A stretch of 64,000 bases of DNA from Candidatus Iainarchaeum sp. Its GTDB lineage: Archaea > Iainarchaeota > Iainarchaeia > Iainarchaeales > CSSED10-239. Position 1 is the first letter of the stretch. Every line of letters starts with the position of its first letter. A program made the translations under genes and the position numbers. The stretch lies in assembly GCA_028700115.1 (NCBI GenBank), contig JAQVTI010000001.1:107798-171797 (forward strand), read 5' to 3'. Under the pieces are notes generated by a model. That model did not search any database. It was given only the letters and a program-made list of their open reading frames with translations, and was not told the origin of the DNA. Shown here piece by piece: positions 2,315 to 63,709 of the stretch.

Positions 2315-2588
2315 AATAAAATTTATTTAAATTATTATAATTTAATGAATTATCTTCTGTTGAATAAAAAACATATCTTAAACACCAATAATCATTATCA
2401 ATATCCCCAACAGGAATATTTGGAGTTTTACTTAAAAGTTTAGAAGAATAAACCACATCTATATTATTTTGAGAATCTTGTGAAAATGAAAAATATATAG
2501 TAGTAGTTAATACTGCAGCAAATATTATAAAAATAATTACATAATATAAAGTTGTTAAACTAAAAATAAAACCATTTTTATTATTCAT
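2280..2588 (-). CDS. small pilin-like / membrane-anchored protein
   Basis: N-term MNNKNG-FIFSLTTLYYVIIFIIFAAV. Weaker class III signal-like motif. Sits in the tandem pilin-like array and overlaps its neighbours by a few codons. Confidence 0.35.
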   Translation of the reverse strand: MNNKNGFIFSLTTLYYVIIFIIFAAVLTTTIYFSFSQDSQNNIDVVYSSKLLSKTPNIPVGDIDNDYWCLRYVFYSTEDNSLNYNNLNKFYCEEYYESKRFI

Positions 2589-3099
2589 TATACCACACTT
2601 TTAAATGTGCAATAGATATATTTAAATCACAATTTGAACTTCCTTCTATACAAGAAAGATATTTTTCTTTAGAAATATATTTAAAATCACTAATAATCAC
2701 ATTAAAATCAATTTCATAAACATTATCTATATTTGATTGTAATATATCATTACAAGAATTATTTAAAATATTAAATGAATCTATACTAAAATTACATTTA
2801 TAATTATCTAAAAGACCTAAAGAATTTTTATTAATATTTGAATCTGTATAAAAACAATTTCTAAAAACAAAACTATTATCTGAATTACTAATAAAACAAT
2901 TTATTTTAGAATTTTGAGAGATATTATTAAAAGCAATTTGAGATATTGAAGATAATTCTTTTTCTTTAAGAGTAGATTGAGTATTATATATTTTTAAATC
3001 AACAAATCTATTTAAAAGAAAAAACATAATAGTAAGTAAAACTATTGCAATAACAATATCTAAAACCATCATTTGTGCTTTTTCTTTTTTTATAAACAT
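2581..3099 (-). CDS. type IV pilin-like protein (class III signal peptide)
   Basis: MFIKKEKA-QMMVLDIVIAIVLLTIMFF matches the archaeal pilin consensus K-[GA]-Q-x-S/x-hydrophobic. Asn/Ser-rich mature part with N-glycosylation sequons. Confidence 0.55.
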   Translation of the reverse strand: MFIKKEKAQMMVLDIVIAIVLLTIMFFLLNRFVDLKIYNTQSTLKEKELSSISQIAFNNISQNSKINCFISNSDNSFVFRNCFYTDSNINKNSLGLLDNYKCNFSIDSFNILNNSCNDILQSNIDNVYEIDFNVIISDFKYISKEKYLSCIEGSSNCDLNISIAHLKVWYNE

Positions 3100-3136
3100 A
3101 TTTTAATCCATTTTATATTTATATTAAGATATTTAA

Positions 3137-3598
3137 TTAACTACAAATAACCTTATATGTAGATAAATTATAACTGCATTTAAGCTCGTCTCCACAAAAT
3201 GTATTTACATCTGTAGAAAACATATTAAATTTAGTTGGGAGAGTATATTCTATATATTTTTTACCTTTATAATCTGTAAAAATATATATAGAATCATTAG
3301 AAATATTTATATTACAATTTGCTTTAAAACTAAGAGTTCTTATATTTGGTATTTTTAAAATAGAATTATAGTTATTTAAATTAAAATTTGAATCATAATT
3401 ATTTATAGATTCAGTATATGCAAGATATTCATTTATTAAGAGAGCAATTTCTTTTTGATCTGAAATAATTTTGTTAACTTCTAAAGTATAAACATTATCT
3501 TTTGATAGATTATCATATATAAATATAAATAATATAACAAATACAATGATAAATAAAACCTCAATAGAAAATTGAGCTTTTTTATTTTTTAAAAACAT
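3137..3598 (-). CDS. type IV pilin-like protein (class III signal peptide)
   Basis: MFLKNKKA-QFSIEVLFIIVFVILFIFIY. The QFSIE motif closely resembles the processed N-termini of euryarchaeal pilins and archaellins (KGQISMEI-type). Confidence 0.6.
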   Translation of the reverse strand: MFLKNKKAQFSIEVLFIIVFVILFIFIYDNLSKDNVYTLEVNKIISDQKEIALLINEYLAYTESINNYDSNFNLNNYNSILKIPNIRTLSFKANCNINISNDSIYIFTDYKGKKYIEYTLPTKFNMFSTDVNTFCGDELKCSYNLSTYKVICS

Positions 3599-18683: not shown

Positions 18684-20192
18684 CTATTGGTTTTCTAAAA
18701 TAATTTGATATTGTTCATTCAAATATTCTGATTCAGAAGCATATTTATCCATAATTGGTAAAACAATTTTTTCTTGCCCTAAAGAATCTTTTAAACTAAA
18801 TAAAAGTCTATGTGTTTCTAAATAAACTCCTTGTTCTTGAGCACATCTAGAAAATACAGCTGGGAAAATTGCAGAAGTTTCATGAACAACAAAATCTTTA
18901 ATAACAAGATATGCTTTATTTGTGTCCACATATTCCTCTATAAACTTTTCTTGAGTATCTTTTTCAAATAATGTACAATATGGACAATCATAATCTGTAA
19001 AAACATAAACCCCAAAATTAGAATATTTATTTCCAATAACATAATCGTTTGAATTTTCTAAAACAGTAGAATCAATTAACTTATATACAAAATCAAGACC
19101 ACTAGAAGAAACTAAATTAGGCATAACAAATGGATTTAAAAGATAACCTTTTGATTTTGTTTCTATAAATAATTGCTCAAAAAAACTTTGAAAATTTTGA
19201 TCATAAACATCATCTTCAAAAATATTTCCTTCAATATATATAGCTGGGATTGAATCTATTTGAGAACCTTCTATAATTTTTTTAGCATTATCAGATTCAT
19301 AAGAAAGATAAATAGTTTCAAAAGAATCTAAAATATCTGTGAAAAATTCTTTAACATCTAAAGTTAAATTTTCTGAATTTTTTAAAGAATTTATAAATTC
19401 AATTGTATTTTGTTTAGAAACAGCATTATTTTCATTTGTAATAATATATATTTTTGGAACAGAATTTACATCTGAAATAAAAGTATTATTATAATCAAAA
19501 GAAATAATTGGATCATTTAAAGTAAAATCAATTTTTTCTTTAAAAGAATTATAATCAACATATCCTGGTAACAAATAACCATTTAAATATATTCCAGGAG
19601 TACCTGTTATTCCTAAAACATTAGCAAGAGAAATATCTTCAGTAATTTTTTTTATAATATCTGCTTTTTCAAGATTTAAATTTGGATTTGAATAATCATT
19701 TTCTATAATACAAGCATCCATTAATTCTTTATTAATATTTAAATCTTTATAATATGGTTCTAAAACTTCTAATTGTGCAAACTTTATATCTCTAAAAATA
19801 TTTGATTGAAGAGAAGTCACTCTTTCTTCAAATTCTTCTAAACTAAGATTTTCTACAATATTGTTATCTATTTGATTTTCATCTAAAAAAGAATTTTGAT
19901 CAATAGATGAAGAACTGTCAATATTTTTAGGATATAAAATAATTAAAATTACAATTGCAATAATTAATAAACCTAAAACAATAATTGTTGCAATATCTTT
20001 AGATTTATATTTTTTAGTAGACTTTACTTTAGAAATCTTTTTTTTATCATTAGAAGACGCATCTTTCTTTTTAGAAACAATATTATTATCAGAAATAGAA
20101 TTTTTCTTTTTTGAAATATTCTTATTTTCTTTAACTACAACCTTTTTTTGTAGTTTCTTTTTATTACTTTTTTTAGTTGCCAAAATAACCAC
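18684..20192 (-). CDS. membrane-anchored DsbA-like thiol:disulfide oxidoreductase with two thioredoxin-fold regions
   Basis: Lys-rich cytoplasmic N-terminus and a single TM (IATIIVLGLLIIAIVILIILY). First domain carries GITGTPGIYLNG cis-Pro-type DsbA motifs. Second domain carries the CPYC active site (DYDCPYCTLFEKD). Confidence 0.6.
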   Translation of the reverse strand: MVILATKKSNKKKLQKKVVVKENKNISKKKNSISDNNIVSKKKDASSNDKKKISKVKSTKKYKSKDIATIIVLGLLIIAIVILIILYPKNIDSSSSIDQNSFLDENQIDNNIVENLSLEEFEERVTSLQSNIFRDIKFAQLEVLEPYYKDLNINKELMDACIIENDYSNPNLNLEKADIIKKITEDISLANVLGITGTPGIYLNGYLLPGYVDYNSFKEKIDFTLNDPIISFDYNNTFISDVNSVPKIYIITNENNAVSKQNTIEFINSLKNSENLTLDVKEFFTDILDSFETIYLSYESDNAKKIIEGSQIDSIPAIYIEGNIFEDDVYDQNFQSFFEQLFIETKSKGYLLNPFVMPNLVSSSGLDFVYKLIDSTVLENSNDYVIGNKYSNFGVYVFTDYDCPYCTLFEKDTQEKFIEEYVDTNKAYLVIKDFVVHETSAIFPAVFSRCAQEQGVYLETHRLLFSLKDSLGQEKIVLPIMDKYASESEYLNEQYQIILENQ

Positions 20193-32056: not shown

Positions 32057-33217
32057 ATGAAAAATAAAAAAATGGCATTAACAGGTGGAGAAGCAATCTC
32101 ATATGCTTTAAAACAAATTAATCCAGATGTTGTGGCGATGTATCCAATAACTCCACAAACTCCTATTATTGAAAGATATTCAAAATATGTTGCAGATGGA
32201 GAAGTAGATACTGAACTAATTAGAGTTGAATCAGAACACTCTGCACTTTCAGCCACAATCGGAGCTGCTGCTTCAGGGTCTCGTGCAGTTACAGCAACAG
32301 CTTCTCAAGGTTTACTTTATATGTTTGAAGTTTTATCTGTTGCTTCAGGACTAAGACTTCCAATTGTTATGCCTGTTGTAAATAGAGCAATATCTTCTCC
32401 AATAAACATACACTGCGATCATTCAGATTCAATGTCTGCAATTGATCAAGGTTGGATGCAAGTATATTGTCAAAATGCACAAGAAAGTTATGAAATGACT
32501 TTATTTGCAACTAAGCTTGCAGAAAAAGTAAACTTACCTATTATGGTTTGTCAAGATGGATTTATAACTTCCCATAATCTAGAAAACATAGAAGTTTTTA
32601 ATGATAATAAAGTTAAAAAATTTATTGAGGACTACAAACCAGCATATAATTTATTAGATGTAGATAAACCTATATCAATTGGACCTTTAGCCTTAACAGA
32701 TTATTATTTTGAAATAAGAGCACAATTATTTGAAGCTTTTTCAAAAATTAAAAAAGAATTTAAAGAAATTTCAAATGAGTTTAAAGAAACTTTTGACATG
32801 AAAATTAATTTTTTAGAAAAATATAAATCAAATGATGCAGAAATTATTTTTATATGCTTAAGCTCAACTGCTGAAAGTATAAAAGATGTAATTGATACTT
32901 ATAGAGATAATGGTTATAAGGTAGGACTTGTAAGACCAGTTTTATTTAGACCATTTTTTTATGAAGAATATGCAAAAGAATTAGAAAATGCAAAAACAGT
33001 AGTTGTTTTAGATAGATCTGAAGGTCCAGGAAGCCATGCACCTTTGTTTAAAGACATAGTTATTTCTTTAACAAACATAGAAAAAAGACCAGAAGTTTTT
33101 TCTTTTGTTTATGGACTTGGTGGAAGAGAGATTTATCAAAAAGATATATGTAAATTATTAGATACTTTAATCTCTGGTAAGCTTCCAAAAAGTAAATATA
33201 TTGGACTTAGAGAATAA
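32057..33217 (+). CDS. porA: pyruvate:ferredoxin oxidoreductase alpha subunit
   Basis: ALTGGEAISYALKQINPDVVAMYPITPQT N-terminal signature of POR/KOR alpha. Confidence 0.85.
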   Translation: MKNKKMALTGGEAISYALKQINPDVVAMYPITPQTPIIERYSKYVADGEVDTELIRVESEHSALSATIGAAASGSRAVTATASQGLLYMFEVLSVASGLRLPIVMPVVNRAISSPINIHCDHSDSMSAIDQGWMQVYCQNAQESYEMTLFATKLAEKVNLPIMVCQDGFITSHNLENIEVFNDNKVKKFIEDYKPAYNLLDVDKPISIGPLALTDYYFEIRAQLFEAFSKIKKEFKEISNEFKETFDMKINFLEKYKSNDAEIIFICLSSTAESIKDVIDTYRDNGYKVGLVRPVLFRPFFYEEYAKELENAKTVVVLDRSEGPGSHAPLFKDIVISLTNIEKRPEVFSFVYGLGGREIYQKDICKLLDTLISGKLPKSKYIGLRE

Positions 33218-33236
33218 TTTTAAATTTGTGAAAAAT

Positions 33237-35672
33237 ATGAATAATTCAGAACTTGCAATAAAGATTAATGAAAATAAAAAATTAGTTCCAGGACATAGAA
33301 CATGTGCAGGATGCCCTATTGCTGTGATATTAAGAACAGCACTTGCTTCAACTGATAAAAAAATAGTTGTAGCTTCAGCTACTTCTTGTGCAGAAGTAAC
33401 TACTACAATATATCCTTATACATCTTGGAATGTTCCTTGGATGCATTCTGTTTTTGCAAATGCAGCTGCAACTATTTCAGGAATTGAAAGTTCTTATAAA
33501 GCTTTAAAGAAAAAAGGCAAAATAAAAAAAGATATTAGATTTTTAGCTTTTGGTGGAGATGGTGGATGTTACATTCCAAAAACAAAAATATTAACTACAG
33601 AAGGTTTTAAAAATGTAGAAAAAATAACTACAAAAGATTTAATTTGGTCAATAAATCCAAAAAATAAAACTTTAGAAAAATCAAAAATAAAAAAAATGCA
33701 TAAATATAATTATAATGAAAAAATAATTTCTGTAAATCACAATTTTGTACATTTTGATGTATCTTTACAACACAACATTCCAATTTATAATAAATTAAAT
33801 AACAAAATAGAAGCTATTAAAGCACATGAATTATTAAATTATGGTAGAAGTGATAAAATAAATATAATAACAGGTGATTTAAACTGGAAAGGTAAAAATA
33901 AAAAATATTTTGAATTACCAAAAATTAAATACAACAAAAATTCAAATAATAAAAAGGACATACCTAAAATAAATATGAAAATTTGGTTAGAATTTTTTGG
34001 ATATTGGATATCTGAAGGACACCTTTCAAAACATAATAGTAAAAGAAATATATACAACACTTTTATATCTCAAACAAAAAAAGCAACTATTAAAAAAATA
34101 GATAAATGCTTAAAACAAACTAAAATAAATTATTGGTATAATAAAGATAGATTTTGTATAAGTAATCAAAAATTATGGGTATATTTAGAACAATTTGGAA
34201 AAGCAAAAGACAAATATATTCCTCAAGAATTTAAAGAATTATCAAAAGACTATTTACAAATATTATTAAATTCATTAATGGAAGGAGACGGCACAATAAT
34301 TAAAAGACTTAAAAGCACAGCTTATTCTTATAGTACAATTTCAAAAAAATTAAAAGACGATGTAATTGAAATTGCACTTAAATTAGGATATAGAGTGCAT
34401 TTAGATGAAAGAACTAGAAAAAACAGAAAAGAATACAGTATATCTTTTTCAAATTACAAACCAACAAGATTAGCAAACCTAAGAAAAAAACACATCACAA
34501 ATTATAATTATAAAGGAAAAATATATTGTCCAGAATTAGAAAAAAACCACATCATGGTTATTGAAAAAGATGGGCGAATAAGTTTAAATATGAATAGTTT
34601 CGACATTGGACTTCAAAGTCTATCAGGAGCATTAGAAAGAGGACATGATTTTACATATATATGTTATACAAACGAAGGATATATGAATTGTTTATCTACA
34701 GATTCACTAATTATGACTGAATCAGGATTAAAACAAATTACAGAAATTAAAAAAGGAGAAAAAGTTTGGGCTTTTGATCAAAAAACATATCAACCTGTTT
34801 TAAAAAAATGCACAGGTGTATTTGATAATGGTAGAAAAAAAGTATATGAAATTGAAACTATACATCAAAATATAAAAGCAACATCTAATCATCCGTTCTT
34901 AGTATTAAAAAGAAATAAAAATAAAGAAAATGAATTTGTTTGGAAAACAGTTACAGAACTTAAAAAAGATGACGAAATTGTAACTCTTAAAAAGAAATTT
35001 TATAAAAACTTAGATATAAATAAAAATCTAAAAAATGATTATAAAATACAAAATAATCATTATTTTATAATAAGAAAAATAAAAAATATAATTCCTAGAA
35101 AAATAGAACAAACATTAGATTTAAGAGTTGAAGGAGAACACAATTTTATTGCAAATGGAATTGTTGTTCATAACACAGGAAATCAGAGATCTTCAGCAAC
35201 ACCTTATGGAGCATCAACAACTACAACTCCTTCTGGAAAAGTTTCTTTTGGTAAAGAAAAATTCCAAAAAGATCTTGCACAAATTATAATTGCACACAAC
35301 ATACCTTATGTGGCAACTGCAAATCCAGAATTCCAAATTGATATGTATGAAAAAATGAAAAAAGCTTTTGAAACAAAAGGACCTTCATTTATTTTAATTT
35401 TTGCAGCATGCCCTACAAACATGAAAGCAGATCCATCAGAGACATTTACAATTAGTAAAATGGCTACTGAGACAAATTACTTCCCACTTTATGAATATGA
35501 GAATAGAAAATATAAAATTAATTATAAACCTTTTAAAAAAGTTCCAATTGAAGAATTTTTAAAACTACAAACAAAATTTAGAGAAGTTTTAAAAGATAAA
35601 AAAGAAATTAAAATCATACAAGAACACGTAGATGAAAAATGGAATAGTATTCTAAAAAAGGAAGAAAAATAA
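33237..35672 (+). CDS. porB: pyruvate:ferredoxin oxidoreductase beta subunit (TPP-binding) interrupted by two inteins
   Basis: Extein pieces CAGCP, AFGGDGG / SFDIGLQSLSGALERGHDFTYICYTNEGYMN / TGNQRSSATPYGAS match the PorB TPP motif. Excising 343 aa and 162 aa leaves about 306 aa, the normal PorB size. Start taken at the Met after the porA stop. Confidence 0.8.
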   Translation: MNNSELAIKINENKKLVPGHRTCAGCPIAVILRTALASTDKKIVVASATSCAEVTTTIYPYTSWNVPWMHSVFANAAATISGIESSYKALKKKGKIKKDIRFLAFGGDGGCYIPKTKILTTEGFKNVEKITTKDLIWSINPKNKTLEKSKIKKMHKYNYNEKIISVNHNFVHFDVSLQHNIPIYNKLNNKIEAIKAHELLNYGRSDKINIITGDLNWKGKNKKYFELPKIKYNKNSNNKKDIPKINMKIWLEFFGYWISEGHLSKHNSKRNIYNTFISQTKKATIKKIDKCLKQTKINYWYNKDRFCISNQKLWVYLEQFGKAKDKYIPQEFKELSKDYLQILLNSLMEGDGTIIKRLKSTAYSYSTISKKLKDDVIEIALKLGYRVHLDERTRKNRKEYSISFSNYKPTRLANLRKKHITNYNYKGKIYCPELEKNHIMVIEKDGRISLNMNSFDIGLQSLSGALERGHDFTYICYTNEGYMNCLSTDSLIMTESGLKQITEIKKGEKVWAFDQKTYQPVLKKCTGVFDNGRKKVYEIETIHQNIKATSNHPFLVLKRNKNKENEFVWKTVTELKKDDEIVTLKKKFYKNLDINKNLKNDYKIQNNHYFIIRKIKNIIPRKIEQTLDLRVEGEHNFIANGIVVHNTGNQRSSATPYGASTTTTPSGKVSFGKEKFQKDLAQIIIAHNIPYVATANPEFQIDMYEKMKKAFETKGPSFILIFAACPTNMKADPSETFTISKMATETNYFPLYEYENRKYKINYKPFKKVPIEEFLKLQTKFREVLKDKKEIKIIQEHVDEKWNSILKKEEK
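33567..34595 (+). mobile_element. intein 1 in PorB (343 aa) with LAGLIDADG homing endonuclease domain
   Basis: Inserted right after the GGDGG of the TPP motif. Starts CYIPKTKILTTEGF (block A) and ends ..ISLNMN, followed by Ser (+1). Carries two LAGLIDADG motifs (FFGYWISEGH and LLNSLMEGDGTI). The penultimate residue is Met rather than His. Confidence 0.65.
34689..35174 (+). mobile_element. intein 2 in PorB (162 aa mini-intein, no endonuclease)
   Basis: Inserted after YMN of YICYxNEGYMN. Starts CLSTDSLIMTESG and ends GIVVHN, followed by Thr (+1): textbook Hint-domain termini. Confidence 0.8.
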
Positions 35673-40899: not shown

Positions 40900-43044
40900 A
40901 TGTGTTCGATTGCAGGTAGCTTTAATTTAACTCAAAGCATCAAAAATTGTTATGAAATGAATGTTTTAATGCAAAAAAGAGGTCCTAACCACACATCTTT
41001 TGCACACATCAAAGATAATAAAGTATATATTTATGAATATACAGATAGATTTGAACAAAACAATACAATAAGCCATAATTTACTTGCAATTGTAGGAAAC
41101 ATATCTCAACCTATAAAATATAAAAACACATTAATTACATCTAATTGTGAGATATATAATTGGAAAGAAATTTGTAAAAAAGAAAAAATAAATGCAAGAA
41201 ATGACTCAGAGATGTTAATTAAACTTTTTGAGAAAGAAAAAGTAAATAAGAAAACTTTAGAAAAACTAGATGGAGCATATGCATTTTGTTTCTGGAAAGA
41301 AAACAAAATTTATCTTGCAAGAGATATTTTAGGAGTAAAACCTTTATGGTTTTCATATGAGAACAAAAGTTTTTGTTTTGCATCAGAAAAAAAAGCCTTA
41401 GAAAAAATTGGACGAGAAAAAATAGAATTTTTAGATCCAAGAAAGATTTTAATTTATGATATTAATAAAAATCTAATTAACTATAAAAAAAGAGAATTTA
41501 TAAAAATTAAAGAAAATAAAAATGGTTTAGAAAAAAATAAAAAAATAATTCAAGAAAAATTAGAACAAGCAATTATTAAAAGAATTCCAGAAAAAAAACT
41601 AGCACTTCTTTTTAGTGGAGGAATAGATTCTACAATAATTGCAATGATTCTTAAAAAACACAAAATAGATTTTACAGCATACTTTGCACATCTTAAAGGA
41701 TATAATGAAAATAAAGATTTAGAATATGTTAGAGAGATTGCAAAAAAATATAAAATTAAATTAAAAATTAAAAGTTTAGATTATAAAGACTTAGAAAAAA
41801 ATATTAAACAAGTTGTAAAAACTATTGAATCAACTAACCCTATTAAAATAGGAGTTGGCTTACCTATTTATCTTGCAAGTAAACTTGCTTCAAAAGATAA
41901 AAATAAAGTTATTTTTTCAGGACTTGGTTCTGATGAGATTTTTGCAGGATATAATAGATTTAAAGAATCTAAACATATTCAAAAAGACACACTTAATCTA
42001 CTTTATCAAATACATGAAAATGATTTAAATAGAGACGACTCTCTTACAATGGAAAACAGTATTGAGTTAAGACTTCCTTTTTTAGATTTACCTTTAATTA
42101 AAGAAGTAATTGGAATTGAAGATAAACAAAAAATTAACTCTGAAGAAAATAAAATTATCTTAAGAGAGATTTCAAAAGAATATAGTCTAGATGAAAAATA
42201 TTTTAAAAGAAAAAAAGTTGCTGCACAATATGGTTCTGGGTTTGATAAAGGAATAATTAAACTTTCAAAAGAAAATAAATTTAAATCAAAATCAGAATAT
42301 CTAAAAACTTTTTTAGAAAAGCAGAATCTTAATTTAGGATGTTTATATTCTTCTGGAAAAGACTCTAATCTTTCTTTAAATATTCTAAAAAAACAAAATT
42401 ATAAAATAAAATGTTTAATTTCTATTATTCCAGAAAACAAAGACTCATACATGTATCAAACTCCTGATTTAAAAATTTTAAAAGCACAATCAGAATGTAT
42501 AGAAATACCTTTAGTTTTAGGAAAAACAAAAGGTGAAAAAGAAAAAGAATTAATTGATCTTAAAAAAGTAATTAAAAAAGCAAAAGATAAATACAATCTG
42601 CAAGGAATTGTCTCAGGTGCATTATTTAGTAACTACCAAAGAGAAAGAATTCAAAACATATGTAATGATTTAGGTTTAAGATTGTTTTCACCTCTATGGA
42701 ATATAAACCAAGAAAAAGAAGTTTTGAAATTAATAAAAGAAAAATTTGATTTTAGAATTGTTAAAATTGCTGGATATGGACTAAATAAAGATTGGTTTTT
42801 AAGAAAAATAGATTTAAAAGCTTTAGAAGAACTTAAAAAACTAAATAAGAAATATGGTTTCAATGTAGCAGGAGAAGGTGGAGAATTTGAAACTATTGTT
42901 TTAGACTCACCTGATTTTAAAAAAAAAATAAAAGTTATAGACTACAAGATAAATTTAGAAAATGAATTTACTGGTGAAATTGAAATTAAAAAAATAAAAA
43001 TAGAAGAAAAAAGAAAAACTAATTCTAACAAGTACAACCAATAG
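40900..43044 (+). CDS. asparagine synthetase-like glutamine amidotransferase (Ntn Cys2 + PP-loop) fused to a C-terminal Dph6/MJ0570-type (DUF71, ATP_bind_4) PP-loop domain
   Basis: MCSIAG N-terminal nucleophile; SGGIDST PP-loop at about residue 235. The C-terminal approximately 230 aa carry a second PP-loop SSGKDS and the EGGEFET motif characteristic of diphthine-ammonia ligase-type enzymes. Confidence 0.6.
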   Translation: MCSIAGSFNLTQSIKNCYEMNVLMQKRGPNHTSFAHIKDNKVYIYEYTDRFEQNNTISHNLLAIVGNISQPIKYKNTLITSNCEIYNWKEICKKEKINARNDSEMLIKLFEKEKVNKKTLEKLDGAYAFCFWKENKIYLARDILGVKPLWFSYENKSFCFASEKKALEKIGREKIEFLDPRKILIYDINKNLINYKKREFIKIKENKNGLEKNKKIIQEKLEQAIIKRIPEKKLALLFSGGIDSTIIAMILKKHKIDFTAYFAHLKGYNENKDLEYVREIAKKYKIKLKIKSLDYKDLEKNIKQVVKTIESTNPIKIGVGLPIYLASKLASKDKNKVIFSGLGSDEIFAGYNRFKESKHIQKDTLNLLYQIHENDLNRDDSLTMENSIELRLPFLDLPLIKEVIGIEDKQKINSEENKIILREISKEYSLDEKYFKRKKVAAQYGSGFDKGIIKLSKENKFKSKSEYLKTFLEKQNLNLGCLYSSGKDSNLSLNILKKQNYKIKCLISIIPENKDSYMYQTPDLKILKAQSECIEIPLVLGKTKGEKEKELIDLKKVIKKAKDKYNLQGIVSGALFSNYQRERIQNICNDLGLRLFSPLWNINQEKEVLKLIKEKFDFRIVKIAGYGLNKDWFLRKIDLKALEELKKLNKKYGFNVAGEGGEFETIVLDSPDFKKKIKVIDYKINLENEFTGEIEIKKIKIEEKRKTNSNKYNQ

Positions 43045-44299
43045 CTGCACAACTTTTACCCCAAGCAGTTGCCATTGCTTGACAAAGTGCGACATTACCG
43101 TCTGTAGATGACCTATAAAACATATCACTTGTATCAGTTGTAATCGAAACATTCCATGAAGATAAATTTCTATTCATTTTAGTTCTACCAAACATATAAT
43201 ACATAGTAGATACATTTGAAACATCCCAATTAGATAAATCTTGGTTAAAATTACTTGCATATGCGAACATATTACGCATATTATTAATATTTGAAACATC
43301 CCAATTATTCATATTAGAAACATAAGATACATTTGAACAATTTCTAAAAAAACCTTCTAAACTAGTAACCCCATTTAAATCTAAAATATCAGTTGCAGTT
43401 ATACTAGTTAAATTACTACAACCATAAAATGCATTTGTACTAAATTTTGGGTTAAACCCCCCCCAATGAGATATATTTGTAATTTTAGGATAATCTCCAG
43501 AAGCATTAAAAGACCAACCTTGAATAGTTCCAAACATATTTACATCATAAATTCCTGATGAAGAATAAGTATGTAATTTATCAGAATCATCATAAGAAGT
43601 TATTTCTGAAGTAGTCCCATCTCCCCAATCTACTGTAAAATCATAATTACCTTCAGAAACTAAAGGTAAAGATATTTGATTAGCTTCACTAGATCCAGTA
43701 GAAGTTTTTGTAGTATCCCAAGTTGAAGAAAAATAAGGAATTATACAATCTTGACCACATGAAGAAATTGTTTCATCTCCATTACAAGTTCCATCTCCAC
43801 AATAAGGTGCATTATCACATGAAACAAGACTTGCTCCTAAATAACTTACAGGAATAGAAATATATTTACCATCATTAGTTTTTAATTCTAAAATAAATTC
43901 TTTTGAAGGAATACATATTATATCTAATTGATTACTTCTATTTGGATTAATAACTAAAGGAGTTTCTAAAGTATATTCTGTGTTTATAAAATTTGTATTT
44001 TCTGCGGTTGTAGAAATTAATTTATATGCAACAACATTTAAATCTTTATTAAAATTGTTATTTTCTAAAACAACTTTAGAATAATCCCCAGACATACTTT
44101 CATAAACAGATCTGTATTTTATAAACCCATCTAAATCTGATTTATCATAAGTAACTACAGAAGATTCATCTAGATTAGATGTAGTAAAATCTTTTGAAAA
44201 AGAAACAATTCCTGCAATTAAAACAACTGAAACTAAAACAATTAAAACAGTTGCAATTAATGGAGAAATTGCTTTTTTATAAAAATCATTGCCAAACAT
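43025..44299 (-). CDS. surface protein with archaeal class III (pilin-type) signal peptide, Cys-rich module and C-terminal DUF285/BspA-like repeats
   Basis: Start taken at MFGNDFYKKA-ISPLIATVLIVLVSVVLIAG (archaeal pilin N-domain-like). The longer track ORF begins at 44383. CGDGTCNGDETISSCGQDC module. Repeats NFNQDLSNWDVSNVSTMYYMF / NLSSWNVS..DMF typical of DUF285. Confidence 0.55.
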   Translation of the reverse strand: MFGNDFYKKAISPLIATVLIVLVSVVLIAGIVSFSKDFTTSNLDESSVVTYDKSDLDGFIKYRSVYESMSGDYSKVVLENNNFNKDLNVVAYKLISTTAENTNFINTEYTLETPLVINPNRSNQLDIICIPSKEFILELKTNDGKYISIPVSYLGASLVSCDNAPYCGDGTCNGDETISSCGQDCIIPYFSSTWDTTKTSTGSSEANQISLPLVSEGNYDFTVDWGDGTTSEITSYDDSDKLHTYSSSGIYDVNMFGTIQGWSFNASGDYPKITNISHWGGFNPKFSTNAFYGCSNLTSITATDILDLNGVTSLEGFFRNCSNVSYVSNMNNWDVSNINNMRNMFAYASNFNQDLSNWDVSNVSTMYYMFGRTKMNRNLSSWNVSITTDTSDMFYRSSTDGNVALCQAMATAWGKSCAAIGCTC

Positions 44300-44360
44300 A
44301 TATAAACAATTATAAAAAATATTTAAAAACATATTTATTATTAAATAAAAATTAAAAAAA

Positions 44361-52710: not shown

Positions 52711-55020
52711 ATGAAGATAGGAAAATATACTGTTGGAAACTACATAGTTACTCAAGAAGGAAATAAAAAAAAATTAGTTTTTGACTGTAGAAACTGTCCA
52801 TATAATACATCAATTGCAGAAGATGCAAGATGTAGATACCATGTTTTAAAAACATTAGAAACAATAGATGCAGATGAAATAATATTAGCAGAAGTATATG
52901 AAAGAAGCTATGATAAAATACAAACAAAATTTTTAAAAGAAATGGTAAATCTTGGGATGGATTTTGAAAATAAAGCTGTTTGGGTTTCAGAACATTTAAA
53001 TATTAATGATATTGATTGCGATCAATGTTACCCACAAAGACATAATAATATTTTAAAATTTGCAAGAGAACTAATCTCATATGACCCAATAGCATCATAT
53101 ATAACTTTATTAAAAGAAATAGAAAACAATAAAACAAGAGAAGAAGACTCAAAAGGAAAAGAATGCGAAAAATGCTTTACTGCAAATATAAATCATTTAT
53201 TAAATTTAAAAAAACAATATGAAAAAACTGAGTTTATTAGAAGAATCAAACCAATTTTAGTAAAAAGCAAAGATCTTTCTGACTTAACAGATATTTATAG
53301 AACCATTTTTGAAGTAGAAATAAAACCATCTTTTATTGGATCTAAAATATCTTTTGAAAATATGGATAAATTAGAACTAATAGACGAATACCAAGTATTA
53401 AACACAAATGTACAAATATTTAAACATCCAGAAAAAATAGAATATATGTATATGATTAACCCCCCAGAGTACACACTTTCTCCAGACCATTATTTTGTAC
53501 TTACAAAAACAAAAGAAACTGTTGCAAACTATGCTCCTGGAACAGTTACTCTTACAACAGGGGATTCAACTAGAAAATACTTTCAAAGAATATATCAAAG
53601 CACAATAACAGATATTGCACGAAAATTTGCAATAAACATAAATGCAGAAGACATTTTTGCACTTTCTGAAATAGTTACAAGATATACAATTGGATATGGA
53701 ATTTTAGAATTACTACTTTCAGACAGACAAGTAACAGATGTTTATCTAGACTCACCACTTGGTTCAAAACCAATCTATTTAGTTCACTCTAAATATGGAC
53801 AATGCCAAACAAACATACAATACCCAGAAAGCGATGCTGAAAGCTTTATTGGAAAAATTAGAGCAATGTCTGGAAGACCATTTGATGATGCACATCCAAT
53901 TTTAGACTTTGATTTACCAGATCTTAACACAAGAATTGCAATTATTGGAAGACCTCTTGCAACTGATGGGATTGCATTTGCATTCAGACTTCATAAAGAC
54001 ACTCCTTGGACTCTACCACAGTTAATAAATGTAAAATCACTTAACTCACTTGCAGCAGGTATGCTTTCATTTTTTATAGATAATAATTCAACTATGCTAA
54101 TTGCAGGATCACGTGGTGCAGGAAAAACTTCTTTAATGACTTCTTTAATGCTTGAGATTCTACAAAACAGTAGAATCATAGTTCAAGAAGACACATTAGA
54201 ACTTCCTGTAATGTACATGAAAGATATTGGGTTTAATGCCCAAAGACTAAAAACAAGATCTGCAATTGGTGGAACAGGAGATCTAGCAACATCTGAAGTT
54301 AAACCAGAAGATGCTCTAAGAACAGCTTTAAGACTTGGTGACTCTGCTTTAATTGTTGGGGAAGTTAGAAGTGTTGAGGCTAAAGTTTTATATGAAGCCA
54401 TGAGAATTGGTGCAGCTGGAAATGTTGTTATGGGAACAATACATGCTGATTCAGCTTATGCAGTTTGGGATAGAGTTGTAAATGATCTAGAAGTTCCAAC
54501 AACTTCTTTTAAGGCAACTGATATTGTAGTTGTTGCAAAGCCTATAAGATTTAAAGGATCTTTAAAAAACCATAGAAGAGTAGTTCAAATCACAGAAGTT
54601 AGAAAGCATTGGAATAATGATCCAGATGCAGAAGGCGGACTTTTAAACTTAATGGAATATGATGCTTCAAAAGATACACTTGTTTTAAATGAAGATGCTC
54701 TAAAAGACTCTGAGATGTTTACAAAGATAAGTAAACTTTCTGGTATGAAGATAGAAGAGATTTGGGAGAACATTAACTTAAGGTCAAAAGAGAAACAGTT
54801 CCAAGTAGATTTTGCAAAAGAAAAAGATGTGATTGAAATTTTAGAGGCAGAACACACTGTTTTTGCACACAACAAGCTTCTTATCATGAAAGAAGAATAT
54901 TTGGAGTATTATAATGATAAGCTAGATTATAATGATTTATACGAAAAATGGAAAAAATGGTATACAGAAAGCTTTGCTCCAAGAGTAATTAAAAGAATAA
55001 AAGATAATAGAATTGAATAA
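52711..55020 (+). CDS. FlaI/VirB11/TadA-family secretion ATPase (type IV pilus/archaellum assembly) with about 250 aa Cys-rich N-terminal extension
   Basis: Walker A GSRGAGKTS. Asp/Glu box IIVQEDTLEL. His box region TIHADSAY. N-terminal CRNCPYN...CRYH, CDQCYPQRH and CEKCF suggest a Zn-binding module. Confidence 0.65.
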   Translation: MKIGKYTVGNYIVTQEGNKKKLVFDCRNCPYNTSIAEDARCRYHVLKTLETIDADEIILAEVYERSYDKIQTKFLKEMVNLGMDFENKAVWVSEHLNINDIDCDQCYPQRHNNILKFARELISYDPIASYITLLKEIENNKTREEDSKGKECEKCFTANINHLLNLKKQYEKTEFIRRIKPILVKSKDLSDLTDIYRTIFEVEIKPSFIGSKISFENMDKLELIDEYQVLNTNVQIFKHPEKIEYMYMINPPEYTLSPDHYFVLTKTKETVANYAPGTVTLTTGDSTRKYFQRIYQSTITDIARKFAININAEDIFALSEIVTRYTIGYGILELLLSDRQVTDVYLDSPLGSKPIYLVHSKYGQCQTNIQYPESDAESFIGKIRAMSGRPFDDAHPILDFDLPDLNTRIAIIGRPLATDGIAFAFRLHKDTPWTLPQLINVKSLNSLAAGMLSFFIDNNSTMLIAGSRGAGKTSLMTSLMLEILQNSRIIVQEDTLELPVMYMKDIGFNAQRLKTRSAIGGTGDLATSEVKPEDALRTALRLGDSALIVGEVRSVEAKVLYEAMRIGAAGNVVMGTIHADSAYAVWDRVVNDLEVPTTSFKATDIVVVAKPIRFKGSLKNHRRVVQITEVRKHWNNDPDAEGGLLNLMEYDASKDTLVLNEDALKDSEMFTKISKLSGMKIEEIWENINLRSKEKQFQVDFAKEKDVIEILEAEHTVFAHNKLLIMKEEYLEYYNDKLDYNDLYEKWKKWYTESFAPRVIKRIKDNRIE

Positions 55021-58216: not shown

Positions 58217-58960
58217 TTAATTAATTTTATTTAAAATAAACTTACAAATAAGTTTAAAATCTAATCTATATTTTTTTAAAATATAATGATTTGTTGAATT
58301 ATTATACAATTTTATTTTATAATCATCATTTATTATATTATTTAATTTATTAATAACTATAGATTTATCTTTTATTGGAAAATTATTATCTTTTAGTATA
58401 ACATAGATATCATAAATATCTTTACCTTCATCTCTATTTATAAAAGCTTTAATTTTTTGATAAAATAATTCTTCTAAACTATAAACATTAAAATAAGATA
58501 TATCAAAATCAACAAATCCAGGATAAATTATTTTTTTATTAATATCAGGCATATCTTTATTATTTAATCTAAATTCAAGCATAATTTTATCTTTTTGATT
58601 AATCTCATTAATATACTGAATATCAAATCTAATTGTTTTATTCATGATTCTTGGTTTATTTACAATATAAGATTTCAAATATTTTTTTAAAATTAAATAA
58701 ATATCTTCTTTTAAAATATTTATTTCTTTTTTAGAAAAAATATCAAAATCAATATCTTCAGAAAATCTTTTAAATTTATTAAAATAAACTCTATTTAAAG
58801 AAGTTCCTCCTTTTAATATTATATTATCAAATTTATTCTCTAATAATTTAAATATTTTTGAAATTTCTTTATCTTTTATAATATAATTTGTAGATAATCC
58901 AGTATCTAAACAAATTTTTCTAATAAGTTTTATATCCATTAATTTAATACCACCAATCAA
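58217..58960 (-). CDS. abiEii: AbiEii/AbiGii-family nucleotidyltransferase toxin (type IV TA, DUF1814)
   Basis: IILKGGTSLNRVYFNKFKRFSEDIDFDIF matches the LKGGTAL...RFSEDIDF signature. Confidence 0.65.
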   Translation of the reverse strand: MIGGIKLMDIKLIRKICLDTGLSTNYIIKDKEISKIFKLLENKFDNIILKGGTSLNRVYFNKFKRFSEDIDFDIFSKKEINILKEDIYLILKKYLKSYIVNKPRIMNKTIRFDIQYINEINQKDKIMLEFRLNNKDMPDINKKIIYPGFVDFDISYFNVYSLEELFYQKIKAFINRDEGKDIYDIYVILKDNNFPIKDKSIVINKLNNIINDDYKIKLYNNSTNHYILKKYRLDFKLICKFILNKIN

Positions 58961-59732
58961 TTATATTTTTTTCACCTAAATTATCTTTTAGTTTCCATTT
59001 ATCTATATATTTTGATTTTTTATTATTTATATTTAATAAATAAGTATTAGATTTGTCTTGAGATAATAAATATTTTAAAAAATAATTAGGTATTTTTAAA
59101 TTTGTATTTTTAAGTAAAATATCTAAAATATAGCCAGTAATTTGATTTTGTCTTTTACTAGAGTATTTTTTATAAATTAATAATAATTTATTCCAATTTA
59201 TTTTATTTGAACCTAAATATATAGCTTTAGATAAAATAGAATAACTACCTATATATTTAAATTTATTAAAACAATCAAATATAGTTTTTTCTAAAGAAGA
59301 AATATAAATATTATCTATTCTTATAAAATCATTATAAAAATTAGTATTTATATATTTTAGATTATATTCATATAATTTAATATTTTTAGATTTTTTATTA
59401 GTAGAAATATATATGTTGAAAGGATGGTAATCTATTAAACCATAATAAAATAAAGCAGATGAAAAAGAAATATATCCAGGATATAAATTAGTTGCTATTT
59501 CAAAAAGATCATTTATTGAAAAAATATCTTTTTTAATATAATTATTTTTTTTAAGATTTAATAAATACCCTTTATCTTTTAATTGTTTTAATAAAAAATT
59601 AATCTTATAATTAGAATAATCTTTAAAAGCAGATTTTAAATCATTGTTTTTTAATATATTATTCTTTTTTTTAGAATCTATATAGTTATACAAATAATTT
59701 TCATTATTTGTTAATTGGTTATTTTTTTGCAT
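58944..59732 (-). CDS. abiEi: AbiEi-family antitoxin / transcriptional regulator
   Basis: YPGYISFSSALFYYGLIDYHP matches the AbiEi_4 motif YxSxxSALxxHGL. Overlaps the downstream toxin gene by 17 nt. Confidence 0.6.
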   Translation of the reverse strand: MQKNNQLTNNENYLYNYIDSKKKNNILKNNDLKSAFKDYSNYKINFLLKQLKDKGYLLNLKKNNYIKKDIFSINDLFEIATNLYPGYISFSSALFYYGLIDYHPFNIYISTNKKSKNIKLYEYNLKYINTNFYNDFIRIDNIYISSLEKTIFDCFNKFKYIGSYSILSKAIYLGSNKINWNKLLLIYKKYSSKRQNQITGYILDILLKNTNLKIPNYFLKYLLSQDKSNTYLLNINNKKSKYIDKWKLKDNLGEKNIIDWWY

Positions 59733-59937: not shown

Positions 59938-62493
59938 TTACATGTTTTCAATAACGTTGATTAATTCTTTAGCAGCCATTGCAGTGTCTTCAGCTGTCAT
60001 TCCAGCAACAACAATATTACCTTCAGCGTTTTGTCCTAATACATAGTCTCCAGAAGCTGTTAACATAGTATCTAATCCTATATTTTGAGCTAATGTGTTA
60101 ACTAAGTGACCACCAACAATGATTTTGTTTCCTGCTGGGTTTTCGTTATCAAGGTATACTAATTTGTTTGTTGCAACATTCCATGTCATTGGAACAATAG
60201 CATCAGTTGCAGCTCCACCAGATAAAGCAACAGCATCTAATGATACAGATACTCCGTCTTCTGTTTGTTGTTCTCCTTCAGCTGTTAAAGTGAATGTTGA
60301 ACCGTTAATTGATGTTGAAGTACTAGCTCCTCCACCAACGAAGATTTGTCCATATAATTTAGTATCAGGAACAATTGCAGTAAACATACCTCCGTCTACT
60401 TCAGCATATGTACCAAATTCTGTATATCCCCAAGTTAAATCATCAGAATCTTCTTGATTTAGTGTGTAAGTTACAGCATCACCAGTTGTGAAAGCTGAAT
60501 TTCCATTTACAACAAGAACTTGATCAACAACAGCTAAATAAGATGAATCATCTGTATCTACTAAATTTCCAGTTCCAGCATCAATATGAGCTACTACTGA
60601 ATCTTGACCATCATCAACAACAAATTCAAACATAGATTTCATATCAGTACCGTCTGTTAAAACACCTGTAGCAGTTTTACCAACATATGTACCATCACTA
60701 GTTGCAGCAACATCTATTTGTGTATATATATTTTTAATAGTCCAATCTTGAGTAGGACTATCAATAGTACCTTCAATAGATCCTGCAGCACCTTCTTTAA
60801 GACCTAATGCAAATTGAGTAATATCATTTGTTCCAGTTGCACCATCTTCGTTAATATATAAACCATAAGCTAATTTTTCAGATTCATTATTATATAATGG
60901 GATTGTTAAATCTGTAAATGCAGCATCTGTGTAAACAAATTTAGAATTATCTGTATTTGTTGTTTCCCAAGTCCAAACATTAGAAGTTTTTGTTAAGTAA
61001 TCTCCATCATCATCTTCTAATTGAACTGTGAAATAACCAATATCTAAAGCATCATTTGCAGCATTAGGAATTCCACCAACATTGGAATCTTCATTACCAT
61101 ATATAAAACTATCATAAGAACCTACATCTGTAGTAGTATTAAAATCCTCATCAGCTGTATGGAATTCAATGTATAATTTCTTATCATCTAATGTTTGCAT
61201 AGTTGTATAGTTTTCACCATCTCCGTAAGTTCCATCTTCTTCTTCATAAAAGAATACTTTGTGATCGTCGTCAGTAGCATCTATATAAGAAATATATCCA
61301 TCTTCAACAATTACTTCTTTTGATGATTCATTAGTTAAACCTAAAAAGTCAATAGAACCTAAATCAAATGGTAAAACAATAGAGTCATCTACTTTTAAAG
61401 CATCTTCATCTTCCCATTGAACATCTTGATCTTCATTAGTAAATACTATTTTTGTAATAGGATCAGAACCTGTAAAACTAACTTTCCATAATTTATCATC
61501 TATATTTGGGAAATCTTCAATAATTTGTCCACTTTCAAGCTCTATACTTGTACTTGTACCTGAAACAACAGTTACTTTTTTATCATAAACTGTATCTATT
61601 TCTACATTTGATTCTAAATATTCGTTGAATACTGTTTCATAATCTGTAAAAACTTCAGAAGCTAAAATTGCACCATTTTGAGAAATACTTAATTCAACAG
61701 AATAATTATTACTAGATTCTAAAATATCTTCAACAGTGATTGTATATCCGTCAACTTCAAAAGAAGCACCTTCTTCATAAGGAGCTGTATTTTTATTTTG
61801 AACTAAAGTTACAATTCCATTAGAATAGTCTTCAAGAGTATATTCATTACCCATTAAATTAAATTTGAAATCAGGACTACCTTCATCATTAGCACCATTA
61901 TTAATTCCAGGATTAAATTCAAGAGTATATGAAATATCCCCTCTATCAAATGATGCTGTTAAATCAGCTACATCTTTATCTGAATCAAAAGCAACTGTAG
62001 GAGTAATAGTAATACTTTCTTGTACATTTATTTCATCAGTATCAAAAATACTATCATCAACATCTACGTCATAATCTCCTAAAACAGAATAATCTCTGTC
62101 ATCAAGAGTTTCTGTAACACTAGTAGATCCTAATTCCCAATCATCTGTTAACAAACCGTCTCCAGAAATTGTAGATGTTGATTCAGCACCAGCTGTAACA
62201 GTTACACTTTCTAATGCAGCTCCAGCGATTGCGTCACCTGATGTGTAAGCTTTCTTTCCAATAGCAGCAGCTATGTTTCCAGCCCATACAACATCAACTG
62301 GTTGAGCCATAGATCCAACGATTACATTGTAAGCTGGTCCTGTAGCACCAAATAATTGATCTTTTGTTAAGTTGTCTATTCCAGTGTATGTGTCATCTGC
62401 CATGTTAGCAGCAGCAACAGCACCTGCAAATAAAGCAGAAACTGCAAAAACACCTGCACCAGCAACTATTTTCTTCATATTTATATTCTTCAT
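59938..62493 (-). CDS. putative S-layer / major cell-surface protein
   Basis: Sec signal MKKIVAGAGVFAVSALFAGAVAAA. 851 aa, Thr/Asp/Gly/Val-rich with almost no Lys, unlike the K/N/I-rich rest of the window. Local GC clearly higher. Long AT-rich promoter region. Confidence 0.5.
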   Translation of the reverse strand: MKNINMKKIVAGAGVFAVSALFAGAVAAANMADDTYTGIDNLTKDQLFGATGPAYNVIVGSMAQPVDVVWAGNIAAAIGKKAYTSGDAIAGAALESVTVTAGAESTSTISGDGLLTDDWELGSTSVTETLDDRDYSVLGDYDVDVDDSIFDTDEINVQESITITPTVAFDSDKDVADLTASFDRGDISYTLEFNPGINNGANDEGSPDFKFNLMGNEYTLEDYSNGIVTLVQNKNTAPYEEGASFEVDGYTITVEDILESSNNYSVELSISQNGAILASEVFTDYETVFNEYLESNVEIDTVYDKKVTVVSGTSTSIELESGQIIEDFPNIDDKLWKVSFTGSDPITKIVFTNEDQDVQWEDEDALKVDDSIVLPFDLGSIDFLGLTNESSKEVIVEDGYISYIDATDDDHKVFFYEEEDGTYGDGENYTTMQTLDDKKLYIEFHTADEDFNTTTDVGSYDSFIYGNEDSNVGGIPNAANDALDIGYFTVQLEDDDGDYLTKTSNVWTWETTNTDNSKFVYTDAAFTDLTIPLYNNESEKLAYGLYINEDGATGTNDITQFALGLKEGAAGSIEGTIDSPTQDWTIKNIYTQIDVAATSDGTYVGKTATGVLTDGTDMKSMFEFVVDDGQDSVVAHIDAGTGNLVDTDDSSYLAVVDQVLVVNGNSAFTTGDAVTYTLNQEDSDDLTWGYTEFGTYAEVDGGMFTAIVPDTKLYGQIFVGGGASTSTSINGSTFTLTAEGEQQTEDGVSVSLDAVALSGGAATDAIVPMTWNVATNKLVYLDNENPAGNKIIVGGHLVNTLAQNIGLDTMLTASGDYVLGQNAEGNIVVAGMTAEDTAMAAKELINVIENM

Positions 62494-62865: not shown

Positions 62866-63401
62866 TTATTTATCTAGATAAATATCTAGATACATAGGCA
62901 AGGCACCTTTATCTCTTTCTTTTAATATTTTAAATTTAAATTTTTTATAAAAATGAATAGAATCTTTACTTTTGTCCTTATTTCTTTTTACATCTAAAAT
63001 TAAAAATCTACAACCACAAATACTAGATAACTTTTTAGCTACACTATAAGAAATTTCAAGTAACATTGTTCCAAAGCCCATTCTTGAAAAATCATCATCA
63101 ACTGCAAGTCTACCTATCTTTAATGCAGGAATTGCTTTATATTTAACATTTTTTTAAGAAAAAAAGTCTTTAAAGGTTTAGTTAAATTTAAAGAATCAGT
63201 TAATAAAGTAACATAACATACTAAATTATCTTTATAAAATAATAAATAAGTAGTAGATATTTTTTGTTTTTAATTACTTAAAGCATCATCTACTAAAAAA
63301 TCTTTCAAATCTTTCTCATAGGTTTTAAAATTAGTAATAATATCTTTGTCAGTTTTTAAAATAGGTCTAATTTTAATATATTTTAAATTTATTTTTTCCA
63401 T
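62866..63401 (-). pseudogene. GNAT-family acetyltransferase (toxin-like size, about 178 codons) disrupted by two frameshifts in A/T homopolymer runs
   Basis: Three consecutive minus-strand frames: MEKINLKYIKIRPILKTDKD..DDALSN* / KQKISTTYLLFYKDNLVCYVTLLTD..KKMLNIKQFLH* / KNVKYKAIPALKIGRLAVDDDFSRMGFGTMLLE..CRFLILDV..FYKKFKFKIL. Motif A is intact. The frame changes sit near nt 63285 and 63160. Confidence 0.55.
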
Positions 63402-63556
63402 AATTGACTTTCATAAAAAGATCTGTTCTTTTCTGCATTTTTAATAAATGCAACTCTTTCTTTAGAAGGATGCTTTAACTCTTTAGCCCATCCTTTAATA
63501 AACTTATCAGCATCATCCCCTCTTAATACAGGAGTTGCTCTAATTAGTTTAGCCAT
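63389..63556 (-). CDS. small protein (55 aa) upstream of and overlapping the GNAT gene start; possible antitoxin-like partner
   Basis: Manual translation MAKLIRATPVLRGDDADKFIKGWAKELKHPSKERVAFIKNAEKNRSFYESQLWKK. Its stop overlaps the GNAT ATG by 11 nt. Confidence 0.3.
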   Translation of the reverse strand: MAKLIRATPVLRGDDADKFIKGWAKELKHPSKERVAFIKNAEKNRSFYESQLWKK

Positions 63557-63709
63557 ATTTATCACATTTATATAATATATATGTATTTATTAAAACAATT
63601 TATAAGTATTTGTATTACAAATAAAAAAAGAACAAAAAAGAAAGAGAAATAGAATATAAATTTTTAAAAAAAAGAAAATAAAAAAACAGTTTTTAATATT
63701 TTAAAAAAA

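Follow-up and report, generated by a model that had tools for sequence, protein, structure and literature searches.

A pilin-like N-terminal module joined to a DUF285 leucine-rich repeat region in a DPANN archaeon

A 64,000-nucleotide stretch of a Candidatus Iainarchaeum sp. genome (contig JAQVTI010000001.1, positions 107,798 to 171,797; hereafter the window) carries on its minus strand a gene whose product joins a short basic N-terminus and a hydrophobic segment to a region of DUF285 repeats of the BspA-like type. Does this N-terminus belong to a pilin-like module or does it simply hold the protein in the membrane and, in the former case, where would the protein finally be displayed? A first-pass annotation of the window had described the product as an adhesin-like DUF285 protein that carries a class III signal peptide of the archaeal pilin type, a description that the family profile, the motif, the predicted structure and the DUF285 score support. 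We find that the protein, which we call the target, consists of a pilin-like module (residues 1-160), a linker (161-188) and a PKD-like plus DUF285 region (189-400), which is the layout of a modular pilin, and that its architecture, family, motif and fold can each be read directly from the data presented below. The source organism is a tiny, probably symbiotic DPANN archaeon, and we consider it rather probable that the target is one of its adhesins, a modular type IV pilin-like protein whose leader is cleaved and whose carrier module resides on a filament, probably at the tip.

The leader and the pilin-like module

The open reading frame (ORF) lies on the minus strand at the coordinates first assigned to it and encodes 424 amino acids (aa; Table 1). 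Its ten-residue leader is followed by ISPLIATVLIVLVSVVLIAG..., and the string KKA-ISPLIATVLIVLVSVVLIAG, on which the resemblance to pilins was originally based, occupies residues 8-30. In substrates of the archaeal class III signal peptidase (SPase III), a basic residue at -2 is the hallmark, -1 is small (G/A, in some cases S) and positions -2, -1 and +1 are important (PMC3387779); the target has K9 at -2 and A10 at -1, and prepilin-peptidase cleavage is predicted between A10 and I11. A hydropathy scan finds one hydrophobic segment only, at residues ~10-35. A scan of all six reading frames of the window finds a single instance of a strict class III-like pattern and two of a looser FlaFind-like pattern; the N-terminal motif is more than a chance match.

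The family to which this module belongs emerged from an exhaustive search of 1.84 billion cluster representatives with a profile of residues 1-164, built from the five closest sequences. It retrieved 279 cluster representatives at E<=1e-3 and 122 at E<=1e-10, with lengths from ~80 to 1271 aa, and nearly all matches sit at the extreme N-terminus of their proteins (positions ~2-165). When residues 1-189 served as query in a word-indexed homolog search, P0121, a partial annotation of the same gene, was the sole result. In the consensus of 141 sequences, position -3 is K/R and position -2 is K in 106 and R in 24 (130/141), while -1 is S in 82, A in 46 and G in 9 (137/141). Position +1 is I/L/V and is followed by S-P-L-I-A-T-I-L-L-I-V-V and about ten further hydrophobic residues, behind a leader with a median length of 8 aa. 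A 23-sequence profile matches the solved archaeal filament subunits 8rey_M (E 3.8e-5), 8fk7_A (2e-4) and 8fj5_A (2e-3), the last of which is deposited as "Pilin_N domain-containing protein". Residue 1 of the 8rey_M chain (VSPIIATILLIAITVVLAA..., VSPIIATILL...) aligns with Ile11 of the target, that is, with the predicted +1 position. The single hydrophobic segment, the -2/-1/+1 consensus and the profile matches to solved pilins agree on an archaeal pilin-type class III signal.

The predicted structure is in line with this assignment. AlphaFold2, run with a 66-row alignment, gives a mean predicted local distance difference test score (pLDDT) of 88.5 for the full protein and 87.5 for the isolated module (residues 1-165). 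The N-terminal alpha-helix spans residues 13-48 in the full protein, a length of 36 residues, and 12-46 in the isolated module. It leads into a pilin-like head of seven strands distributed across residues 60-152 (pLDDT ~85-97), and the conserved Cys129 and Cys161 flank the last strands of this beta-sandwich. Beyond the head, the model continues with a low-confidence linker, a second beta-sandwich (189-262), a solenoid (273-400) and a helix (402-413). In a Foldseek search of the PDB with the full protein, 8fk7_A, a type IV pilin of Pyrobaculum calidifontis, ranks first (E 1.7e-6, 144 columns, 136-residue chain), and it does so again for the isolated module (E 4e-6, TM-scores 0.42/0.49); over both searches the match has TM-scores of 0.42-0.50 and 144-147 columns. 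The top dozen for the full protein also contains the Sulfolobus acidocaldarius AAP, pilins of S. solfataricus and S. islandicus and Halobacterium archaellins; 8q30, 6w8x, 6nav and 9eq7 are among the entries listed. A reading of the target as an archaellin was rejected: archaellin structures give only weaker, helix-driven matches, and the motif at the N-terminus is that of Pilin_N. The structural evidence is moderate alone and convincing in combination with the sequence motif and the profile matches. Together, these data support the N-terminal 165 residues as a pilin-like module, a divergent relative of Pilin_N rather than a generic transmembrane anchor.

The position of the module at the very N-terminus depends on the start codon. 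The frame is open as far as 44383, and the first-pass annotation had raised the upstream-Met alternative, in which the hydrophobic stretch becomes an internal transmembrane segment. Translation would then begin at TTG 44383 or ATG 44380, which we regard as very unlikely. The target has five full-length orthologs (P0001, P0002, P0003, P0021 and P0146; 44-59% identity), all of which start 8-13 residues ahead of a conserved K-K-[AS]; the extension MMIFLLINFFNFYLIINMFLNIFYNCLY has no counterpart in these orthologs or in the 141 family N-termini and would overlap the KH-domain gene before it at the latter's 3' end. P0121, the partial annotation at NCBI, begins MFGNDFYKKAIS... (MFGNDFYKK), at the same position as ATG 44299. 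This codon is also the only one to which the correctly spaced archaeal TATA-box-like motif belongs: no such box stands at that distance from any in-frame start further upstream (44383, 44380, 44332), and a motif count finds one starting 24-34 nt upstream of only 1.3% of positions on the minus strand. The motif may be the promoter, which would fit a leaderless or short-leader transcript. Because the orthologs, the NCBI start, the KH-gene overlap and the TATA-like box agree on ATG 44299, we reject the upstream-Met scenario and take this ATG as the supported start.

The full-length protein has no exact match in the protein collection searched, which includes NCBI. Contig JAQUYT010000028.1 (assembly GCA_028691725.1) ends within the gene, at window position 44009, and this assembly holds the target only as a 106-aa N-terminal partial (P0121, PHR26_01695; 100% identical) and a 170-aa C-terminal call. 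The complete pilin-DUF285 architecture is thus missing from the collection because the contig break splits the gene.

The passenger region and the modular family

Behind the pilin-like head comes a Cys-rich module that the first-pass annotation had noticed and that is indeed present, with five cysteines in CDNAPYCGDGTCNGDETISSCGQDC. AlphaFold models it with low confidence (pLDDT 55-67). The linker occurs in 3/5 orthologs and is therefore an insertable module, which may act as a disulfide-stabilised spacer. The underlying CGDGxCxxxExxxxCxxDC-type cysteine motif, an optional insert between modules in these three orthologs, recurs at the C-termini of P0001 and P0002 and is covered by no Pfam family.

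The PKD-like domain that follows gives a weak PKD_4 match and weak structural matches to RbmA. It precedes DUF285 likewise in Asgard and bacterial homologs, and DUF285 surface proteins usually carry it as their N-terminal cap. PamR of the Pam pilus of the Candidate Phyla Radiation (CPR; NF058578, RbmA-like) was rejected as an identity for the target, the score being 27.2 bits against a cut-off of 300 and the match being confined to residues 198-256. The C-terminal transmembrane helix that is a feature of PamR is absent from the hydropathy scan of the target, and the Pam pilus, a chaperone/donor-strand system, has no relation to type IV pili; the match reflects the shared beta-sandwich only.

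The DUF285 assignment is secure. The PF03382 search that the first-pass annotation had proposed scores far above the cut-off of 25 (82.9 bits, E 1.9e-23, residues 289-398), and the repeat it had quoted, NFNQDLSNWDVSNVSTM, is found at residues 350-366. A repeat scan locates canonical W[DN]VS repeats at three places, residues 333, 358 and 382. NCBIfam models of the PARCEL repeat match as well, TIGR02167 falling slightly under its cut-off (28 versus 30). The C-terminal tail is shared with the ortholog P0021 (...CQAIATAWGQSCATLGCTC). No family of solute-binding proteins of the ABC type appears in the Pfam and NCBIfam results for the target.

A homolog search with the DUF285 protein yields 1949 homologs, including Asgard archaea and Flavobacterium, so that the earlier view of DUF285 as mainly a domain of Mollicutes and Firmicutes is outdated. 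The PARCEL survey of 2010 found no DUF285 (IPR005046) in Archaea (PMC2996958), a gap that many database entries now fill. The nearest relatives of the target's DUF285 module come from metagenomes and Asgard archaea, and an inter-domain transfer from Mollicutes or Firmicutes is unsupported. Only 4 of the 120 best DUF285 homologs have a class III N-terminus; the others inspected, most of them from metagenomes and the named ones from Asgard archaea and Flavobacterium, begin with Sec or lipoprotein-like sequences.

The same pilin module carries quite different passengers in other proteins. Pfam scans of 102 members, plus selected members, identify Laminin_G_3 in 24/102, GLUG in 12/102, RCC1 propellers and Lcl_C in 7/102 each, DUF5122 in 6/102, PKD in 5/102, CHB_HEX_C in 3/102 and Kelch in 2/102; DUF285 is the passenger in just six family members, the target included. 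Alongside these long proteins, 25 of 149 representatives are pilin-sized (<=230 aa). P0122 is ~59-65% identical to the target over the pilin module and continues into another, unannotated C-terminus of 630 residues, which indicates recent cassette exchange. Among the GTDB representative genomes scanned, a set that does not include the target's own genome, the module occurs at seven loci, in Candidatus Forterrea, Woesearchaeota, Nanoarchaeia and two bins labelled Methanosarcinales. The complete genome of Candidatus Forterrea multitransposorum (CP045477.1, 5021..9794) encodes three tandem paralogs of 494, 449 and 617 aa with a common pilin-like N-terminal module and differing C-termini; they lie directly upstream of ribosomal protein genes and exemplify local family expansion. 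The variable passengers behind a constant pilin module therefore define a family of modular pilins or class III-signal adhesins, mostly of DPANN archaea.

The second DUF285 gene announced in the first-pass annotation, at the window's edge, is also real (Table 1). It ends in the common ...NYNSLLISW... C-terminal cap and, because this cap is missing from the target, is not a close paralog of it. Used as a query, its 96-aa fragment returned only an unrelated 86-aa match and no close match among the proteins compared.

Proposed role, alternatives and known systems

We propose that the single N-terminal hydrophobic segment inserts the precursor into the membrane, where a PibD/FlaK-type prepilin peptidase would cut off the ten-residue basic leader at Ala10/Ile11. 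The mature helix and the small beta-sandwich would then serve as the carrier pilin module, which type IV filament machinery could pull from the membrane, most likely, by analogy, as a minor pilin at the pilus tip. The Cys-rich spacer would link this module to the PKD-like domain and the DUF285/BspA-type leucine-rich repeat (LRR) solenoid on display, and the latter part may bind a ligand on another cell or surface.

Several observations weigh against this proposal. Taken alone, the target remains below threshold for both Pfam Pilin_N (PF07790; 15.7 bits versus a cut-off of 25.2) and TIGR02537 (16.4 bits versus 20), the subthreshold matches spanning residues 8-48; we therefore argue its identity as a pilin from the family profile and the structure. 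Position -1 is Ser in most family members, not Gly/Ala, although the target itself has Ala. The likeness to solved pilins is moderate (TM ~0.4-0.5, root-mean-square deviation 8-9 A), with generic Ig-like folds close behind. A passenger of ~390 residues cannot pack within the filament body. The target and its orthologs P0021 and P0002 stand alone in unrelated housekeeping contexts, with no pilus operon and no synteny, and neither a prepilin peptidase (Peptidase_A24) nor a FlaJ/TadC (T2SSF) platform is found among the scanned window ORFs. Archaeal pilin genes do, however, commonly stand alone (PMC4858521). Some of these points would equally suit a type II signal-anchor protein, in which the transmembrane anchor stays uncleaved and the pilin likeness amounts to a helix followed by an Ig-like fold: the two subthreshold families, the modest TM-scores among many generic beta-sandwich matches and the lack of a peptidase in the window. 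Such an anchor is improbable in our view, as it would not preserve, over 141 sequences, K/R at -2 and a small -1 residue together with S-P-L-I-A-T at a fixed distance from a short leader, a motif that is the mature N-terminus of the solved subunit 8rey_M. Moreover, some family members do attain Pilin_N (7/102 at E<=1e-3), and an archaeal type IV pilin is the top structural match twice, covering helix and sandwich together.

The main alternative accepts the processing and departs from the favoured reading solely in where the protein ends up: it would remain membrane-anchored or enter a short pseudopilus or bindosome-like assembly, with DUF285 just outside the S-layer. The sugar-binding class III proteins of Sulfolobus, which this peptidase also cuts and which are believed to assemble into a bindosome, provide a precedent (PMC3387779), and the large passenger, the location of the gene outside any pilus operon and the failure to see a platform gene in the window all favour such a display. 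Yet the beta-sandwich that follows the helix looks like that of filament-forming pilins and is unlike substrate-binding proteins, pilin-sized members occur in the family, and the window encodes a filament ATPase and small pilin-like genes. We consider this alternative unlikely, though it has a real chance of being correct, and retain the modular pilin on a filament as the favoured reading.

Bacterial modular pilins offer the closest parallel. They are tip-exposed adhesins, such as PilB and PilC of Streptococcus sanguinis (Raynaud et al. 2021, PMC8179133); in the published catalogue, which is defined by the N-methylation signature and does not cover archaea, fusions of a pilin to PF13385 are the commonest (229 proteins), and pilin fusions to IPR005046 are listed too (PMC8179133). 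The target shares with them an N-terminal pilin module, a short linker and a bulky adhesion module, as well as, by prediction, a tip-exposed adhesin role. The two sets of passengers overlap strikingly, and Laminin_G_3 (PF13385) is the top passenger both in the bacterial catalogue and in the archaeal family. In contrast to the bacterial proteins, the carrier is of the archaeal Pilin_N type, with a basic residue at -2 and S/A at -1 in the family (Ala in the target), and its cleavage is expected from an archaeal PibD/FlaK-type enzyme. The Gly-Phe/Glu5 N-methylation motif is absent, which places the target outside the published bacterial definition, and Pfam gives no match to the N_methyl family (IPR012902) at E<=1.

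The archaeal Pilin_N pilins (P. calidifontis 8fk7 and 8fj5, the Sulfolobus AAP and other Sulfolobus pili) have the same class III leader, alpha-1 motif SP[LIV]I[AG] and beta-sandwich head, but are major subunits of ~130-150 aa, whereas the target adds ~260 residues comprising the Cys-rich spacer, the PKD-like domain and the DUF285 LRR. The Sulfolobus bindosome proteins, large archaeal extracellular non-pilin binders that use a class III signal and the prepilin peptidase (PMC3387779), resemble the target in their size, in this signal and in the processing predicted for it; they are, however, substrate-binding proteins of ABC transporters and lack a pilin globular module, while the target has a pilin-like head and an LRR. 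Finally, the DUF285/PARCEL/BspA proteins of Mollicutes, Listeria, Flavobacterium and Asgard archaea, with 37-51% identity over target residues ~190-400, have the same PKD-like cap and ~25-residue W-D-V-S-x-V-T-x-M-x-x-M-F repeats. The relatives listed use Sec or lipoprotein signals, unlike the target, which has only three canonical repeats and a Cys-rich tail in place of the usual cap.

In the literature searched, we found no description of the DPANN pilin-module family or of an archaeal pilin-DUF285 fusion. The target is an archaeal example of the modular pilins, and the principle of a pilin with a grafted adhesion module, DUF285 included, has already been published for bacteria. The first-pass judgement that a large adhesin processed by the prepilin peptidase would be notable was overstated, in that bacterial modular pilins with DUF285 and LamG modules had already been catalogued and class III signals on archaeal non-pilin proteins were established. 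The gene itself is incremental, and the greater value lies in the family signature K-[KR]-[SAG]|[ILV]-S-P-L-I-A-T, a simple finder for the module in hundreds of large, mostly DPANN proteins. DPANN genome papers often report pilus machinery yet "no annotated pilins" (e.g. PMC9563170). Host recognition and attachment are largely unknown in these archaea, and the family supplies concrete candidate adhesins and a testable parallel to the bacterial modular pilins. A more tentative idea is that DPANN archaea, which need to attach to hosts, may carry fast-evolving modular pilins, one carrier module with swapped lectin, propeller or LRR cassettes, as tip adhesins that set host or surface specificity, the DUF285 region of the target being one such determinant. 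If this were true, the cassette types held in common with CPR and other bacteria, such as LamG and DUF285, could reflect cross-domain exchange among co-resident ultrasmall symbionts.

Genomic context and possible filament genes

Table 1. Coordinates of the target gene, its parts and related features in the window.
Feature	Position	Strand	Details
Complete coding sequence, modular pilin-like DUF285 protein	43025..44299	-	ATG 44299, stop 43025-43027; 424 aa + stop; from ORF listing and sequence
Leader peptide, residues 1-10 (MFGNDFYKKA)	44270..44299	-	K at -2 and -3, A at -1
Pilin alpha-1 helix, residues 11-48	44156..44269	-	First ~23 residues (ISPLIATVLIVLVSVVLIAGIVS) hydrophobic; from AlphaFold and hydropathy scan
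Globular beta-sandwich of the pilin-like module, residues 49-160	43820..44155	-	From AlphaFold, Foldseek and profile
Cys-rich linker CDNAPYCGDGTCNGDETISSCGQDC, residues 161-188	43736..43819	-	Cys 161, 167, 172, 181, 185
PKD/FnIII-like beta-sandwich, residues 189-264 (STWDTT...DWGDG...HTY)	43508..43735	-	pLDDT >93
DUF285/BspA-like (PARCEL) LRR region, residues 265-400	43100..43507	-	pLDDT >94
C-terminal helix and Cys-rich tail CQAMATAWGKSCAAIGCTC, residues 401-424	43028..43099	-	Helix 402-413
Archaeal TATA-box-like motif TTTAAATA	44320..44327	-	Starts 28 nt upstream of ATG 44299
FlaI/GspE2/CpaF-like type IV filament assembly ATPase	52711..55020	+	769 aa; Pfam T2SSE; PDB matches 2oap, 4ii7, CpaF
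Four consecutive small ORFs (153, 172, 102, 169 aa)	1805..3598	-	Class III-like N-termini each
Second DUF285 gene, C-terminal 96 codons	63710..64000	-	PF03382 E 5.9e-10; N-terminus beyond the window

The window has a G+C content of ~22% and encodes archaeal housekeeping functions: exosome subunits, proteasome alpha, SBDS, prefoldin, RadA, MCM, RPA, topoisomerase VI, aIF1A, aIF2-beta and Rio kinase. On one side of the target lies a KH/Rio/aIF1A cluster, on the other a convergent Asn-synthase/diphthamide-synthase fusion. The latter (40900..43044, +) is a 714-aa fusion of a glutamine-amidotransferase/asparagine-synthase-like part and a diphthamide synthase (Diphthami_syn_2), and shares 20 nt at its 3' end with the stop region of the target.

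The FlaI/GspE2/CpaF-like ATPase of the window has the archaellum ATPase FlaI as its best NCBIfam match (E 2.6e-45), under the equivalog cut-off. It is a possible partner of the target, although the two genes are not adjacent. The ATPase gene stands alone, without a neighbouring FlaJ/TadC; it is followed by a small winged-helix ORF on the opposite strand, and the protein bears an N-terminal extension of ~300 residues with Cys motifs. The four consecutive small ORFs begin MFLKNKKAQ|FSIEVLF..., MFIKKEKAQ|MMVLDIV..., MNNKNG|FIFSLTT... and ...MNQKG|LFNSIFLL..., and one of them is caught by the FlaFind-like scan. No Pfam or NCBIfam family matches any of the four; judged by the motif, they look like candidate pilins of a minor- or major-pilin operon.

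Thioredoxin_4 and DSBA-like domains occur together in a 502-aa protein (18684..20192, -), which may be an extracytoplasmic disulfide-forming enzyme and, if so, would be relevant to the 12 cysteines of the target and to the conserved Cys pair of its pilin module. Near the second DUF285 gene lies a gene for an 851-aa acidic S-layer-like protein (S_layer_C; 59938..62493, -) with a Sec-type signal peptide; it sits in the most G+C-rich 2-kb stretch of the window (31.6% versus ~22%), and its exact sequence is not in the public collection searched. Elsewhere in the window, a pyruvate:ferredoxin oxidoreductase beta-type subunit (TPP_enzyme_C; 33201..35672, +) is split by an intein with a LAGLIDADG homing-endonuclease domain. 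Lastly, an AbiEii toxin/AbiEi antitoxin pair is encoded at 58217..59732 (-), and at 62866..63565 (-) a GNAT-type toxin gene looks broken and has a small antitoxin-like ORF upstream of it.

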